The notes under the pieces were generated by a model. That model did no database searches and was not told the DNA's origin. It saw only the letters and a list, made by a program, of their open reading frames with translations. Positions 33,978 through 42,803 of a stretch of 64,000 bases of DNA are shown here, piece by piece. The DNA is taken from positions 10,576 through 74,575 of the forward strand of contig DVKC01000025.1 in NCBI GenBank assembly GCA_018716295.1, read 5' to 3'. How positions within the stretch are numbered: position 1 is the first letter of the stretch; every line of letters starts with the position of its first letter. A program made the position numbers and the translations under genes. Source of the stretch: Candidatus Avimuribaculum pullicola. GTDB taxonomy: Bacteria > Bacteroidota > Bacteroidia > Bacteroidales > Muribaculaceae.

Positions 33978-34002
33978 CGGTAGTAAAAAGTTTGTAATGC
34001 TG

Positions 34003-34010
34003 CAAAAATA
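34003..34010 (-). promoter_or_regulatory. Bacteroidetes -7 box (TATTTTTG on minus strand)
   Basis: Perfect match 26 nt upstream of the 5-alpha-reductase-like start. Confidence 0.45.
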
Positions 34011-34140
34011 CGAAATTAATTAAAAAGATAGTATCCCATAAAGCCGAAAACTCGGCATGTCTGTTTTATGGACTTTGTTATACCAGTCATGATTAAGGTG
34101 AAATCATGATTGGTCGCTTGTGAGTGTGAGTTTTTTATAT

Positions 34141-34148
34141 TATATTTG
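34141..34148 (+). promoter_or_regulatory. Bacteroidetes -7 box (TATATTTG)
   Basis: Perfect match 11 nt upstream of the ATG at 34159, implying a very short leader. Preceded by two TCATGATT direct repeats at 34087 and 34104. Confidence 0.45.
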
Positions 34149-34158
34149 TAATATAATT

Positions 34159-34896
34159 ATGAAAATTATAAATCCATTTCAAGACATTGAGCATAAGGTC
34201 TATAATCGGACTTTTATGCGCGAGGCTTCCGCAGACATTGAGTATGTGGAAACATCTTTGTCTGCAAAAGCAGATGTTCTTGTAAAGTATCTTAAGGATA
34301 ATTTCAACGTTGATTTTAATCCGCAAGGTGGGTCGGAAGTTGGCACTATTGAGGTTTCTGCTAAGCAGCAGCATTTGTTATTTACCTTTTCTAAAACGCT
34401 TGCTTCTGTTAGGATAGGTGCACGTGATTATCGATCATTTGCATCAACAATGCAGCCTGGCATTGGTCGATTGGTGTCGTTTTTAAATGCTATAGGCGTA
34501 ACAGAGGTCGTCAGGGTGACTTTAAAAAAACAAAATGTGTGGGATTTGGATTCGGAGGATGTGTTTAATGCATTTAAAACTGCTATACCATATACATTTT
34601 TGGACGAAGGTATTCGGGAAGTTGCACGTCTTAATATTTCGAATAGTCCCAAACCAGTAAAAATAAGCCGCGAAGCCAATGCCGAGATTGGAGATGGCAG
34701 ATTGGTCGTAAAATTTGATGCCGAAATATTGGATGAACGGCACATTCGGTTTGTTTTGGGACTGGAAGCATTTGCCAACGATGTGAAAGTTGCAGAAATC
34801 CTTGAATCGTCATCATTGTTGAATGATATTATTTATGCGGCATTCCATGATTTGGTTACGCCTGATATAATTAAATTAATGGAAAAAGCTCAATGA
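34159..34896 (+). CDS. Hypothetical protein A of three-gene operon (245 aa, soluble)
   Basis: Long clean ORF, AT-rich codons, no TM segment. I see no catalytic motif. It faintly resembles TIGR04255-type uncharacterised proteins from memory, unverified. Confidence 0.7.
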   Translation: MKIINPFQDIEHKVYNRTFMREASADIEYVETSLSAKADVLVKYLKDNFNVDFNPQGGSEVGTIEVSAKQQHLLFTFSKTLASVRIGARDYRSFASTMQPGIGRLVSFLNAIGVTEVVRVTLKKQNVWDLDSEDVFNAFKTAIPYTFLDEGIREVARLNISNSPKPVKISREANAEIGDGRLVVKFDAEILDERHIRFVLGLEAFANDVKVAEILESSSLLNDIIYAAFHDLVTPDIIKLMEKAQ

Positions 34897-35477
34897 GTAT
34901 GATGGAATTTAATATGTCGGCTCCGATCGAAATTCCCCACAATAGAACAAAGGCATCTTATGTGCTTACTGTTGTGTCGGTTTTGTCTATGTCCTTGGGG
35001 GCATATAACATATATGCTGTAAATAATAATCCGACAAATGGCAGTGTGATTTGTGAGCAGCGTAACGGTGATACCAATGAGGTCATTCATGATGAAATTG
35101 ATGCTAATTTCAATTCGGAATTTGCATCCAAGGCAGGCATGATTGCAAGATTGGAAAATCTTTATGGTGATTTGCAACATGAAGGGTGGGATGGATATGG
35201 ATCTGCACCTTTGGAAGAAAGTTCATACAACAACACAAAAAAGTTGCTGGAGCTTCTATCAGGCTCTCAATTGAGTTTTTGGAATCTTTTCCCAAGCCCT
35301 AATGGGACATTCCTTTTGTCTGCTAAATCGGGCATAGCTTCGATAAATATTGGTAATAAAGAATTTTCGTATGCGGCGATGAAAGGAGAAATAAGGCTCA
35401 TGGGGAAAGAAACTTTTGATGCCGACCAAGCAGCTAAAGTAGTGGAACATATTCATTCTATTTTCAGGTATGGATGA
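34893..35477 (+). CDS. Hypothetical protein B (194 aa, N-terminal membrane anchor)
   Basis: Start overlaps the stop of A (ATGA). One TM helix (ASYVLTVVSVLSMSLGAYNIYAV), then a soluble domain containing GWDGYGSAPL. Confidence 0.7.
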   Translation: MSMMEFNMSAPIEIPHNRTKASYVLTVVSVLSMSLGAYNIYAVNNNPTNGSVICEQRNGDTNEVIHDEIDANFNSEFASKAGMIARLENLYGDLQHEGWDGYGSAPLEESSYNNTKKLLELLSGSQLSFWNLFPSPNGTFLLSAKSGIASINIGNKEFSYAAMKGEIRLMGKETFDADQAAKVVEHIHSIFRYG

Positions 35478-35913
35478 ATTTTCTAATTTACAAACTATTG
35501 ATGGTGAAGAAGAAATCGCCAGAATTGTTTTTTCGCCATCTATGGTTGTCGGTGGCAATGTTGCGCCATCGGCATTCTTCCTGGTAAAGTTGAGGGGCGA
35601 CAAACCCGAAGGATATCTTTCGGTTTGGCGGTTGGCATTGAAAGTCCCTAATCGCGAAAATGTGAAATTTCCCCCTCGTATTCAAGGAGATACTTTATAT
35701 GGGTATGCCGAGTTGAATGTCTGTGATTGCCACAATGCAGCTGTTGGTGAATGCCGATGTGCAGTTAAAGTAAATTTGAAATCGCCCAATCAATATCATG
35801 CTGGGATTTATTACACAAAAGGTAATGAACGTATTGTGGGAGAGTGCTATGACCCTGCATTTGTTTTGTTTGCTTCGGTTTTGGCAGGGCAGTCGGTCTT
35901 GGTGAAAATATAA
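35470..35913 (+). CDS. Hypothetical protein C (147 aa, Cys-rich)
   Basis: Start overlaps the end of B by 8 nt. Carries a CDC...GECRC...GEC cysteine pattern. No family recognised. Confidence 0.65.
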   Translation: MDEFSNLQTIDGEEEIARIVFSPSMVVGGNVAPSAFFLVKLRGDKPEGYLSVWRLALKVPNRENVKFPPRIQGDTLYGYAELNVCDCHNAAVGECRCAVKVNLKSPNQYHAGIYYTKGNERIVGECYDPAFVLFASVLAGQSVLVKI

Positions 35914-35915
35914 AT

Positions 35916-35934
35916 GGCGGCATATATTGCCGCC
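35916..35934 (+). terminator. Hairpin between the three-gene operon and tRNA-Ser
   Basis: ggcggca-tatat-tgccgcc begins 3 nt after the stop of gene C. No T-tract follows. Confidence 0.5.
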
Positions 35935-35942
35935 AAGGGTTG

Positions 35943-36030
35943 CGGAGTGAGGGGGATTCGAACCCCCGATGCGCTTTTGACGCATACACGCTTTCCAGGC
36001 GTGCCTCTTCAGCCACTCGAGCATCACTCC
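35943..36030 (-). tRNA. tRNA-Ser (anticodon GGA)
   Basis: Hand-folded from the reverse complement: acceptor GGAGTGA/TCACTCC, T-arm GGGGG-TTCGAAT-CCCCC, anticodon loop CTGGAAA, long variable arm. CCA is not encoded. Confidence 0.9.
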
Positions 36031-39716: not shown

Positions 39717-40244
39717 ATGCCGAGGGATAATGAATACAACGATTATTTCGATGGCGACTCGACCGAAGAAGAGGAAAGCCAGCCATCGACCGAGCATCAA
39801 CAAGATACCGACACTCCCGAGTCGCGTGACGAGCAAGAAATTGAAAGCCAGACGATAGGCAAGCGTGGCGGCAAGTTGCGCAAGGCCGTGGCCGTGTTTC
39901 TGTCGGTGGTAGTTGTGGTGGTAGTTGTGTGGGCTTATGTGGTGTACTGTGTACCATACGTGAGCGAGGCACAACAGCGAGGTACAATAGTCGAATTGCG
40001 GCGTGAAGGATATATCTTCGATACATACGAAGGGCAGATGGTCAGTGAGGAGCGTCTTGTCGATACTGTGCACATATATGAGCGAGATTTCATATTTTCG
40101 GTTGTAGATGATTCTTTGGCACATGACATTATGCAATTGAAGATGACTGGCAAGCGTGTGACGCTCACTTACAAGGAGTACCGTGGTGCATTGCCGTGGC
40201 GTGGTAATTCCACAATTATTGTCACCGATTGCAAGGTGCAGTAA
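39717..40244 (+). CDS. Hypothetical membrane-anchored protein
   Basis: Highly acidic N-terminus, a poly-Val TM helix (VVVVVVVVW), and a C-terminal globular domain. Confidence 0.6.
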   Translation: MPRDNEYNDYFDGDSTEEEESQPSTEHQQDTDTPESRDEQEIESQTIGKRGGKLRKAVAVFLSVVVVVVVVWAYVVYCVPYVSEAQQRGTIVELRREGYIFDTYEGQMVSEERLVDTVHIYERDFIFSVVDDSLAHDIMQLKMTGKRVTLTYKEYRGALPWRGNSTIIVTDCKVQ

Positions 40245-40368
40245 AAAATAGGTTGCTCGGGTGCAATATTAATGCAGCGATATACGTTATATATGCAAAT
40301 TTGCATATATTCTGCCAGCGTTGCAGGTGTAAAATTTAATACAGCCATGTTATTAAAATGAAAAACTT

Positions 40369-40578
40369 ATGAAAAGGAGATTGAAAGCAATTGGGATTAT
40401 TTTTGGTGTCACGGTATTGATTGCCGTGTTGTATTTAGGTATATCAAAATTGATTGAAATCCACGTCGCTTCGGAGATGGTGGGTGGCTCGTCGCCTAAC
40501 ACAAATGGGACCGAATCGGCGTTCCCTGTGATTTCCGATGGTCTGTTGCCCATGCTTGGCAGCGTGTGGCTTGTTTAG
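40369..40578 (+). CDS. Possible small membrane/secreted protein
   Basis: 69-aa ORF with an N-terminal hydrophobic helix. There is no other support. Confidence 0.25.
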   Translation: MKRRLKAIGIIFGVTVLIAVLYLGISKLIEIHVASEMVGGSSPNTNGTESAFPVISDGLLPMLGSVWLV

Positions 40579-40718
40579 GCTTATCTGTGCCATGCCCGTT
40601 TGTAAGCGTTTGAGTGCGGTATGTGGCTTTTTTTTGCGATATCGGGCAACACTGTTGAAAAATGAAGCCAATAAGACAAATTTCGTGTAAAAGATTTGCA
40701 TCATTGGATATTCCTGCA

Positions 40719-40726
40719 TAACTTTG
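40719..40726 (+). promoter_or_regulatory. Bacteroidetes -7 box (TAACTTTG), candidate ilv promoter
   Basis: Perfect match 29 nt upstream of the leader-ORF ATG at 40755. Confidence 0.45.
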
Positions 40727-40754
40727 CGGCATTAACAACGATATAGATGAGCTT

Positions 40755-40853
40755 ATGAACGCGTTATCTTCCATTACTGTCATTCTATCTGCAGCATTGC
40801 ACGTCGTCCTATCAATTAGCGTCGTGGCAATTGTCGTGGATATTTTGAAATAA
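40755..40853 (+). CDS. Candidate ilv leader peptide (32 aa, Ile/Leu/Val-rich)
   Basis: Hand-translated as MNALSSITVILSAALHVVLSISVVAIVVDILK*. 17 of the 32 residues are I, L or V. It lies between the promoter box and a terminator hairpin and is too short for the ORF track. Confidence 0.5.
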   Translation: MNALSSITVILSAALHVVLSISVVAIVVDILK

Positions 40854-40908
40854 GCAGTGGAGGTTACGGCACGCGTACATAGGCCTGAGTACCATAATAA
40901 ATTTATAG

Positions 40909-40958
40909 AGAACCTTTCCTCCACGAGATAGTAAGACTGGCGGAAAGGTTCTTTTATT
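40909..40958 (+). terminator. Attenuator-type intrinsic terminator upstream of ilvD
   Basis: An 11-bp stem (agaacctttcc / ggaaaggttct) followed by TTTTATT, ending 22 nt before the ilvD ATG. GTGGAGG (40857-40863) can pair with CCTCCAC (40918-40924) and overlaps the 5' stem. Confidence 0.5.
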
Positions 40959-40979
40959 CATAGTAAGATAGAATTAGAT

Positions 40980-42803
40980 ATGAGTTTTCCATTGAAAAGT
41001 GCCATATCGACACAAGGTCGCCGCATGGCAGGGGCGCGGGCATTGTGGCTCGCCAACGGCATGAAACCTGGGCAGATGGGCAAGCCTATCATTGCCATTG
41101 TCAACTCGTTTACTCAATTTGTGCCAGGGCATACGCATCTGCATGAGGTGGGGCAGATAGTGAAGCGCGAAATCGAGCAATTGGGCTGTTTCGCTGCCGA
41201 GTTCAACACTATTGCCATTGACGACGGCATCGCCATGGGCCACCAAGGGATGCTTTATTCGTTGCCTTCGCGCGACTTGATTGCCGACAGTGTGGAATAC
41301 ATGGTTAACGCCCATTGTGCCGATGCGATGGTGTGCATAAGCAACTGCGACAAGATTACTCCAGGTATGCTCATGGCCGCAATGCGGTTGAATATACCTG
41401 CGATATTTGTTTCGGGAGGCCCTATGGAGGCTGGGCATACGGGTGAACGTGCACTCGACCTTATCGATGTGATGGTCGATGCCGCCGATGACAGCATTGA
41501 TGACAAGACTATTGCCGATGTGGAATGTTGCGCTTGTCCGACGTGTGGTTCTTGCTCGGGAATGTTCACTGCCAATTCCATGAATTGCCTTGTCGAGGCC
41601 ATTGGATTGGGTCTGCCAGGCAACGGGACTATTGTTGCAACGCATTCCAACCGTCTTGCTCTCTTCAAACGGGCTGCCGCAATAATAGTGGAAAATTGCA
41701 AAAAATATTACGAAGATGGCGACACGAGCGTATTGCCGCGCAGCATTGCCAGTCGCCAAGCTATGCTCAATGCCATGACGCTTGACATTGCAATGGGTGG
41801 AAGCACCAACACTGTGTTGCACTTGCTTGCAGTGGCCAATGAGGCCGAAGCCGATTTCACCATGGCCGACATTGATGCGCTATCGAGGCATACTCCTGTT
41901 TTGTGCAAGGTCGCTCCAAATTCAAAATACCATATTGAAGATGTCAATCGTGCTGGAGGTATAATGTCGATAATGGGTATTCTTGCCCGTAATGGACTTA
42001 TCGACACTTCATTGCGCCGTGTAGATGGCTTGACGTTGGGCGAAGCTATCGACCGATATGCTATCGAGGGCGCGAAGTTCGACATGACTGCCGCTTGGCT
42101 GTGGCGCAGTGCTCCAGCTGGTGTAAGGTCGGTCACTCTCGGCGGACAGGAAAATTATTACAAAGAGCTTGATACTGACCGTGCTACTGGATGCATACGC
42201 GATTTTGACCATGCCTATGTGAAAGACGGCGGGCTTGCTGTGTTGCGGGGTAACATTGCCAAAGATGGTTGCGTGGTGAAGACGGCTGGTGTCGATGAAA
42301 GTATATTCCATTTCCGTGGTCGCGCCAAAGTGTTTGAGTCGCAGGAAGATGCTGTTGATGGCATTCTCGGTGGCAAAGTCGTGGCGGGCGACGTGGTGGT
42401 AATCATCTACGAGGGTCCAAAGGGTGGCCCTGGAATGCAGGAGATGCTTTACCCGACATCATATATAAAGTCGCGGCACTTGGGCAAGGAGTGTGCGCTC
42501 ATCACCGATGGCCGCTTCTCGGGAGGTACGTCGGGACTGTCGATTGGGCATATTTCGCCAGAAGCGGCCAGAGGCGGCAATGTAGGGTTGCTACGTGATG
42601 GCGACATTATCGATATTGACATACCGCAACGCAGCATAAATGTGATACTGAGCGACGAGGAACTCGCCGCGCGTCGTGCCGAGGAGGAAGCTAAAGGGAA
42701 AGATGCTTTCAAACCGACAAAGCGCAACCGTGTGGTATCTAAAGCCTTGCAAGCCTATGCATCGATGGTCACTTCGGCCGACCGTGGCGGTGTGCGCGAA
42801 TAG
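40980..42803 (+). CDS. ilvD: Dihydroxy-acid dehydratase
   Basis: Full-length IlvD with the [10 protein letters not shown] Fe-S region. Confidence 0.95.

Follow-up and report, generated by a model that had tools for sequence, protein, structure and literature searches.

A mobile three-gene cassette of gut Bacteroidales and their phages as a candidate toxin-antidote module

Here, we describe a three-gene cassette, A-B-C, in a 64,000-nucleotide stretch of DNA (hereafter the window) from Candidatus Avimuribaculum pullicola, a member of the Muribaculaceae from the chicken gut known from a metagenome-assembled genome (GenBank assembly GCA_018716295.1, contig DVKC01000025.1, positions 10,576 to 74,575), and propose that it is an autonomous, mobile conflict module of the toxin-antidote kind, similar to type II toxin-antitoxin (TA) or abortive-infection systems, in which C would be the toxic effector, B its antidote and A an accessory component. 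We put the probability of this reading at about 0.45. The evidence for a role in defence or toxin immunity is circumstantial and consists of phage genomes that carry the B domain alone, an asymmetric loss of C, and conflict-system genes that neighbour the cassette at some loci.

Gene order, distribution and neighbourhood of the cassette

The cassette consists of three overlapping open reading frames (ORFs) at positions 34159-35913 of the window, each of which encodes an uncharacterised protein that is entered as hypothetical in the deposited records of Ca. A. pullicola:

34159-34896, plus strand: gene A, 245 aa from its ATG; cytosolic; distantly TIGR04255-like, with a TBP-like predicted fold.
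34893-35477, plus strand: gene B, 194 aa; N-terminal motif F-x-[ILF]-x-E-P, hydrophobic segment, linker and C-terminal domain.
35470-35913, plus strand: gene C, 147 aa; alpha+beta domain of an uncharacterised family; candidate effector.

A and B overlap by 4 nt (ATGA at 34893-34896) and B and C by 8 nt (35470-35477). Direct reading of the sequence bore out the coordinates and sizes of the three ORFs and both start/stop overlaps as given by a first-pass annotation of the window, which had suggested an accessory defence or toxin/immunity-like operon. An alternative GTG start at 34120 would lengthen A to 258 aa; we take the ATG at 34159 as the start because the resulting N-terminus, M-x-I-x-N-P-Y, is conserved in 16 homologues.

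Close homologues are rare, with only 6-12 clusters at 90% identity for each protein among 5.8 billion proteins. The three genes travel together: the order A-B-C is retained in every homologous locus with enough sequence, representing at least 12 lineages, over which identity to the window proteins falls to about 21% for A, about 29% for B and 30-43% for C, and overlapping or abutting B/C junctions recur in the diverged cassettes. The surroundings are mutually unrelated between lineages and include phage genomes and an integrase element, in agreement with the idea of a self-contained accessory cassette. In the window, the cassette lies between a steroid_dh gene and tRNA-Ser; half of the 12 lineages place it in or at polysaccharide loci (see below), and further contexts are the following:

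L011-14: between rpmE and valS.
L016: at the end of an integrase/excisionase element.
L022: beside a homing-endonuclease-like gene, with AbiU 1.7 kb away (PADLOC E-value 7e-45).
L107: as a moron in a 93-kb phage.
L106: as a moron in a 110-kb viral contig.

Genes of the conflict-system type found in the neighbourhood of individual cassettes comprise AbiU, a PIN pair, RhuM, a DUF2589/deaminase pair, Kinase-PolyVal, PDDEXK_9 and YobI-ATPase. Searches by tblastn with A, B, C and the phage-borne B fusion described below against the INPHARED phages, and with A and C against the PLSDB plasmids, gave no match.

Copies of B without C and loss of C

The B domain occurs on its own in phages. Nineteen IMG/VR phage contigs encode a chimeric protein of 231-234 aa that has the B domain as its C-terminal half. 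These phages come from the lineage that also includes phage L107, which carries the complete cassette (flank identity 92-97%), and the segment that they share with L107 at this locus amounts to precisely the 363 nt coding for the B domain; their terminase is 31-33% identical to that of LoVEphage-type Bacteroides phages. The chimeric gene is flanked by two genes with Pfam-confirmed SocA_Panacea antitoxin domains (E-values 1e-15 and 4.5e-11), and the phage B-only genes have no signal sequence. On contig L108 (4065-6852), the gene order is SocA_Panacea (173 aa), DUF5675, DUF7931, the B fusion (234 aa) and SocA_Panacea (156 aa), close to portal and terminase genes, with the same layout on L109-L125; this run has the look of an antitoxin or counter-defence island of the phages. 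Some of the phage B-fusion copies are shortened to 75-159 aa.

Outside this group of phages, a single B domain of 112 aa in prophage L015 adjoins a YafQ toxin gene. The same prophage encodes, directly after its portal gene, an 899-aa protein (L015:6506-9205) in whose C-terminus we recognised, by eye, motifs resembling the R...S-x-S...E-x-E pattern of ADP-ribosyltransferases (TYRGMS, SWSTD, GEDEVL). A two-gene version, B-C without A, is present in L104 with the same 8-nt overlap, and its B protein was assigned to the B family by hhalign (probability 98.4%, E-value 9e-15).

Decay of the cassette, where we saw it, affected C. In L013, A and B are intact and C is absent (L013:10579-12083), with unrelated minus-strand ORFs following, and the sister contigs L011, L012 and L014 have C and then valS at this position. 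In L154, C is truncated at its N-terminus next to intact A and B genes. Among the examined loci, there was none with an intact C and a lost B.

The three proteins

With A, B and C as queries, Pfam, NCBIfam, PADLOC and PHROGs returned only a weak match of A to TIGR04255, profile searches against PDB sequences produced nothing but noise, and neither the window proteins nor the phage-borne copies matched a system in PADLOC-DB v2.0.0. Family scans and PADLOC were empty apart from this sub-threshold match, so that the earlier statement that no named system fits the trio still holds, and none of the three proteins was assigned to a housekeeping pathway by profile search.

The C family contains 135 representatives of 50%-identity clusters at E<1e-3 in a profile search, nearly all of them stand-alone proteins of 145-170 aa. 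In 57 members with a mean column identity of about 27%, residues E14, S51 and H110 never vary, and conservation reaches at least 90% at R18, A35, F36, E47, V52, R54 and G78. In the structural model of C (pLDDT 74, pTM 0.74), the conserved residues sit on beta-strands. This conservation pattern resembles that of an enzyme. The Cys-rich character that had suggested a small effector is not a family trait, as the cysteines are not conserved across the C family, and we have abandoned it as an argument. None of the 57 members matched Pfam, and Foldseek searches with the model against the PDB and BFVD gave a best E-value of 0.28 and template modelling (TM) scores below 0.25; a nitrophorin match in a profile search against the PDB (E-value 0.2) was dismissed as noise. 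Two homologues are fusions. P0073 (471 aa, L105:1011-2426) joins the C domain to a family 2 glycosyltransferase (GT2; E-value 1e-35) and may be real or a read-through artefact. P0158 (255 aa, from a JGI metagenome) joins it to an MGMT-type DNA_binding_1 domain (Pfam E-value 5e-10), which hints at a DNA-related target.

Across its family, protein B begins with an N-terminal [FY]-x-[ILF]-x-x-P motif. Next come a hydrophobic segment, which is short, and a variable linker, and the C-terminal part is taken up by a conserved domain of about 115 residues (about 78-194; GWDGY...WNLFPSPNGTF...GN.EFSYAA). From the first description of B, as a protein with one transmembrane anchor and a GWDGY domain, the domain stands as a conserved unit. 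The anchor fares less well: the hydrophobic segment comprises about 15 residues within positions 22-40 or so, with a 19-residue Kyte-Doolittle maximum of 1.5, and the L129 and L144 lineages, the two-gene version and the phage copies do without it. B has no match in Pfam, NCBIfam, PADLOC, PHROGs or the PDB; a WD40 match in a profile search against the PDB was rejected as noise, being the sum of repeat matches of about 5 bits each. We found no mention of the WDGYG motif in the literature searched.

The N-terminus of B invites a different assignment of roles, in which the trio would serve interbacterial antagonism, with B as an exported toxin or lipoprotein of bacteriocin-like or effector type, A as a chaperone shielding the hydrophobic B N-terminus and C as an immunity or processing protein of the cytosol; in the opposite arrangement, B would confer immunity in the periplasm. 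In most lineages the B N-terminus is signal-like or lipobox-like, the gene pair is as tight as an effector-immunity pair, the distribution is sporadic and mobile, and secreted antimicrobial proteins of Bacteroidales are known in glycan loci. We nevertheless regard antagonism as quite improbable. The Pfam-annotated neighbours of the loci include no type VI secretion system (T6SS), PAAR, Rhs, Hcp, VgrG or MACPF gene, no toxin or immunity family of Pfam matches A, B or C, several lineages dispense with the hydrophobic segment of B altogether, and the enzyme-like invariant residues are in C, not in B. Moreover, an immunity-only pattern predicts orphan copies of C, and it is B that is found alone.

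Protein A scores 15.8 bits (E-value 0.009) against NCBIfam TIGR04255. Six of 16 diverse A homologues match the same family, with a best E-value of 5.8e-6, all of them under 30 bits and with no competing family. The alignment is co-linear, from residues 74-241 of A to profile positions 79-251 of 252. Residues N5, P6, H12, T18, F19, Y91, K124, N126 and N222 are conserved among A proteins. An AlphaFold model of A (pLDDT 64, residues 134-179 disordered) retrieved TATA-binding proteins (TBP) and AdoMetDC by Foldseek, with E-values of 5e-5 to 1e-3, probabilities of 0.96-1.0 and TM scores of about 0.3, which lends moderate support to a TBP-like fold. An internal duplication was not detectable by hhalign, a Pfam scan of A gave no match, and we found no mention of TIGR04255 in the literature searched.

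Promoter and candidate operator

Directly upstream of A lie two elements:

34117-34148, plus strand: promoter of Bacteroidetes type, with CTTG (-33-like, 34117-34120), a 20-nt spacer and TATATTTG (-7 box, 34141-34148).
34082-34114, no strand assigned: inverted repeat ACCAGTCATGATT-N7-AATCATGATTGGT, immediately ahead of the -33 element; putative operator.

The -7 box that had been ascribed to the operon is thus present, together with CTTG 20 nt upstream of it; TATATTTG fits TAnnTTTG and ends 10 nt ahead of the A start codon, and a sigma-70 scan of the region stayed at background level, as expected for Bacteroidetes. The same layout, with -33 TTTG and -7 TAnnTTTG at 8-26 nt before the A start, was found in most of 14 other lineages checked, and this promoter is kept even by cassettes embedded in capsule or other operons. 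The two copies of TCATGATT, first taken for direct repeats of an operator, proved to be the cores of an inverted repeat, so that the direct-repeat operator is rejected in favour of 13-nt arms, ACCAGTCATGATT and AATCATGATTGGT, that are 92% complementary and separated by 7 nt. Ahead of the phage-borne cassette of L107, an inverted repeat again contains an AATCATG half-site.

Five lineages (L010, L016, L107, L129 and L137; e.g., L129:3640-3680) have the promoter spacer TTTGCATATATGATTA in common, which includes the palindrome CATATATG. Their A proteins are only 23-61% identical, and retention of the spacer at such protein divergence suggests that TTTGCATATATGATTA is a conserved, putative operator. 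The window promoter does not contain TTTGCATATATGATTA and carries the TCATGATT-based inverted repeat upstream instead. The promoter found in most lineages and the shared spacer together indicate a self-contained and possibly autoregulated transcription unit. As Rfam found only the tRNA in this region of the window, a type III RNA antitoxin or a riboswitch, which we also considered, is not supported.

Host species, absence from relatives and the tRNA junction

The right-hand side of the cassette is marked by two features, and 28 nt separate its end from tRNA-Ser(GGA):

35915-35935, no strand assigned: G+C-rich hairpin of 8 pairs, 6 of them G-C, between the C stop codon and tRNA-Ser.
35942-36030, minus strand: tRNA-Ser(GGA), identified by Rfam; right-hand boundary, with homology to related species stopping at the tRNA 3' end.

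The hairpin, initially described as the end of the operon, does exist with its 8 pairs. Its T-run, however, is on the minus strand, which is that of the tRNA, so that it reads as a terminator of the tRNA/mgtE side, possibly bidirectional. It is not present in the three closest species that retain mgtE-tRNA-Ser.

In the protein collection, about 195 contigs of Ca. A. pullicola carry each cassette protein and at least 198 carry the steroid-reductase-like gene that flanks the cassette, and synteny is identical on all 8 long conspecific contigs. These matching counts and the identical synteny suggest that the cassette is near-fixed in the species, as ordinary conserved housekeeping genes that merely look foreign would be. 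This last explanation is largely refuted, and we give it very little credence. At 80 related Muribaculaceae mgtE loci (73-93% MgtE identity), A, B and C were found within 7 kb of mgtE in no case, and the mgtE/tRNA-Ser junction of these 80 relatives is without the cassette. The three closest species retain ksgA-mgtE-tRNA-Ser, and homology to the window halts exactly at the tRNA 3' end, with other genes beyond. The small number of homologue clusters and the occurrence of homologues in unrelated contexts, phages included, likewise speak against housekeeping genes, as does a clear deficit in G+C content: the AT-richness noted at the outset amounts to 0.398 in the cassette against 0.491 in the remaining window, and to 0.36-0.40 over 34000-35500 against 0.50-0.55 on either side. 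With 0 of 80 loci and this deficit, the trio does not look like a set of universally syntenic core genes of ordinary composition.

The picture of a foreign cassette at a tRNA 3' end holds for position, deviant G+C content and absence from relatives. It does not extend to a classical integrative island, which we reject because no integrase ORF was found between 33978 and 35941 and the left border of the cassette showed no repeated copy of the tRNA 3' end.

In this Muribaculaceae clade, synteny breaks on the 3' side of tRNA-Ser(GGA), with different DNA after the tRNA in every species examined; in L024 and L026, an AraC-type regulator follows it. A second stretch of low G+C content (0.41 against about 0.50) is located at window positions 40000-41000, downstream of a LPG_synthase_TM gene, and consists on conspecific contigs of small hypothetical ORFs (175 aa and 69 aa) that have no Pfam match.

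Association with capsule loci

Six of the 12 lineages have the cassette within or at capsule-type polysaccharide (CPS) loci, where it runs in the same direction as the genes for biosynthesis:

L009: CPS locus, with Kinase-PolyVal and PDDEXK_9 nearby.
L010: CPS locus.
L017-19: flanked by a GT2 gene and Bac_transf; PIN pair and RhuM as neighbours in L018.
L105: CPS locus.
L129-134: between glycosyltransferase (GT) genes and GT4/Bac_transf, in two locus variants; YobI-ATPase in L134.
L141-155: between Wza/Wzz with a VapE-like primase and the variable flippase/GT part.

CPS loci make up a few percent of Bacteroidales genomes by our estimate, which serves as the yardstick for this enrichment. It raises the alternative that the trio is an accessory module for capsular or surface polysaccharide, which it would modify, regulate or monitor. 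In that case, C would be a small hydrolase or transferase with a Ser/His/Glu site and a sugar or lipid-linked intermediate as its substrate, B a membrane-anchored or exported partner and A a cytosolic one, and the copy on the phage would have a part in seroconversion or superinfection exclusion. Besides co-directionality with the biosynthetic genes, the C-domain::GT2 fusion P0073, the signal-like N-terminus that B often has, and the invariant Ser, His and Glu of C, compatible with a hydrolase triad, are in line with such a function. We consider it unlikely, though less so than antagonism or housekeeping. The cassette keeps its own promoter even within CPS operons, and it occupies sites unconnected to CPS in the window, in L011 (rpmE/valS), in the L016 integrase element and beside AbiU in L022. 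Family scans revealed no homology of A, B or C to glycosyltransferases, flippases, polymerases, export or modification enzymes, the phage B-only genes lack a signal sequence and lie among antitoxin-type genes, and the GT2 fusion was seen in a single assembly, where it could stem from read-through or a frameshift.

The CPS site of the L141-155 lineage shows signs of gene turnover. Just 3' of the cassette at L144:7798-9038, and at equivalent positions in L146, L149 and L153, are DUF2589 and an OTT_1508-like deaminase gene (Pfam E-value 3.5e-11). The genes 3' of the cassette differ between L141-155 strains of one species, so that the site behaves like a variable-gene hot spot, and the position of this hot spot by a VapE-like primase and variable deaminase genes argues for hitch-hiking of the cassette and against a capsule role.

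Proposed mechanism and implications

In the toxin-antidote reading that we favour, the operon's own promoter would drive its transcription, and the palindrome or the conserved spacer may serve in autoregulation. C would act as a small cytosolic toxin of enzyme type, with a predicted site of Glu, Ser and His plus Arg on beta-strands, and B would neutralise it via the conserved C-terminal domain. A would be an accessory third component, i.e., a sensor, regulator or chaperone that acts on B or on the promoter. In phages, the whole module might serve for addiction or exclusion, or the antidote domain alone might be retained.

Several observations weigh against this proposal. Most cassette lineages have a signal-peptide-like or anchor-like segment in B, and two have a lipobox-like VAVGC/AVAC; an exported B would be out of reach of a C that stays in the cytosol. 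The N-terminus of the phage chimera is not recognisably a Panacea domain (PF13274; hhalign probability 8%), and the chimera has no Pfam match either as a whole or with its N-terminal half. The asymmetry in the loss of C is drawn from few cases. A, B and C have no homology to a described toxin, antitoxin or defence protein in Pfam, NCBIfam, PADLOC v2 or PHROGs, and C has no fold match in the PDB or BFVD. Apparent near-fixation in Ca. A. pullicola means that presence/absence polymorphism was not seen in this species, and the placement in half of the lineages at CPS loci could mark a capsule-linked function and not a recombination hot spot. The probability that remains beyond the readings named here belongs to an explanation that we have not considered.

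A more far-reaching proposal, which we advance only tentatively, is that the cassette represents a three-part system of toxin-antidote or anti-phage type, so far undescribed and widespread among gut Bacteroidales, their CPS hot spots and their phages. It would combine a new toxin fold in C with Glu, Ser and His as key residues, a new neutralising domain in B captured by phages as stand-alone or fused counter-defence, and a TBP-fold, TIGR04255-like sensor or regulator in A. The defence and TA repertoire of gut Bacteroidales is poorly charted, and if the toxin-antidote model is right, it would add a new three-component conflict system and three new protein families, including a candidate toxin without a fold match in the PDB or BFVD, and give TIGR04255-like proteins a first functional context. 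It would also provide a natural host-phage pair, in which phages with the full cassette can be set against sister phages that retain the putative antidote domain alone. Recurrent placement at CPS loci could tie phage-receptor variation to toxin-antidote or defence cargo, a tie relevant to gut phage-host dynamics and to phage-based editing of the microbiome. Should the capsule alternative be correct, the cassette would instead mark an unrecognised accessory step in the surface-glycan biology of Bacteroidales.

Comparison with known systems

Judged by sequence comparison, the cassette is built from uncharacterised families, and it fails homology tests for toxins, antitoxins, PADLOC v2 systems, PanA, T6SS pairs and CPS enzymes. 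Likenesses to known proteins and systems are partial. The model of A shares beta-alpha-beta(n)-alpha elements with proteins of TBP-like fold and differs from them in a TM score of only about 0.3 and in having no internal sequence repeat, at a pLDDT of 64 for the predicted model. With TIGR04255, a sporadic NCBIfam family to which no function is assigned, A shares the co-linear alignment, although it scores below the curated cut-off (15.8 against 30 bits).

Like tRNA-linked islands, the cassette abuts the 3' end of tRNA-Ser, is lower in G+C content and is missing in related species, but it measures only 1.9 kb and has neither an integrase nor a direct repeat of the tRNA end. The phage B-domain fusion, placed between two SocA_Panacea genes, recalls the PanA antitoxins (PMC8832971, PMC10440598). 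PMC10440598 reports antitoxins in which Panacea is accessory and neutralisation falls to a second, dedicated domain; the B protein of the window, however, has no Panacea domain, and the N-terminus of the phage fusion is not demonstrably one.

The closest parallel may be with type II TA operons, among them tripartite ones such as the toxin-antitoxin-chaperone (TAC) systems. The cassette departs from these in matching no known toxin, antitoxin or chaperone family, in having no recognisable DNA-binding antitoxin domain, and in a putative antidote that often bears a signal-like hydrophobic segment; relative to TAC systems, its third gene comes first and is TIGR04255-like with a predicted TBP-like fold, not SecB-like. 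It agrees with them in its small genes, which run in one direction and overlap at their stop and start codons, in its own promoter with a palindrome nearby, in its patchy, mobile spread through phages and integrative elements, and in the orphan copies of the putative antidote and the preferential loss of the putative toxin.

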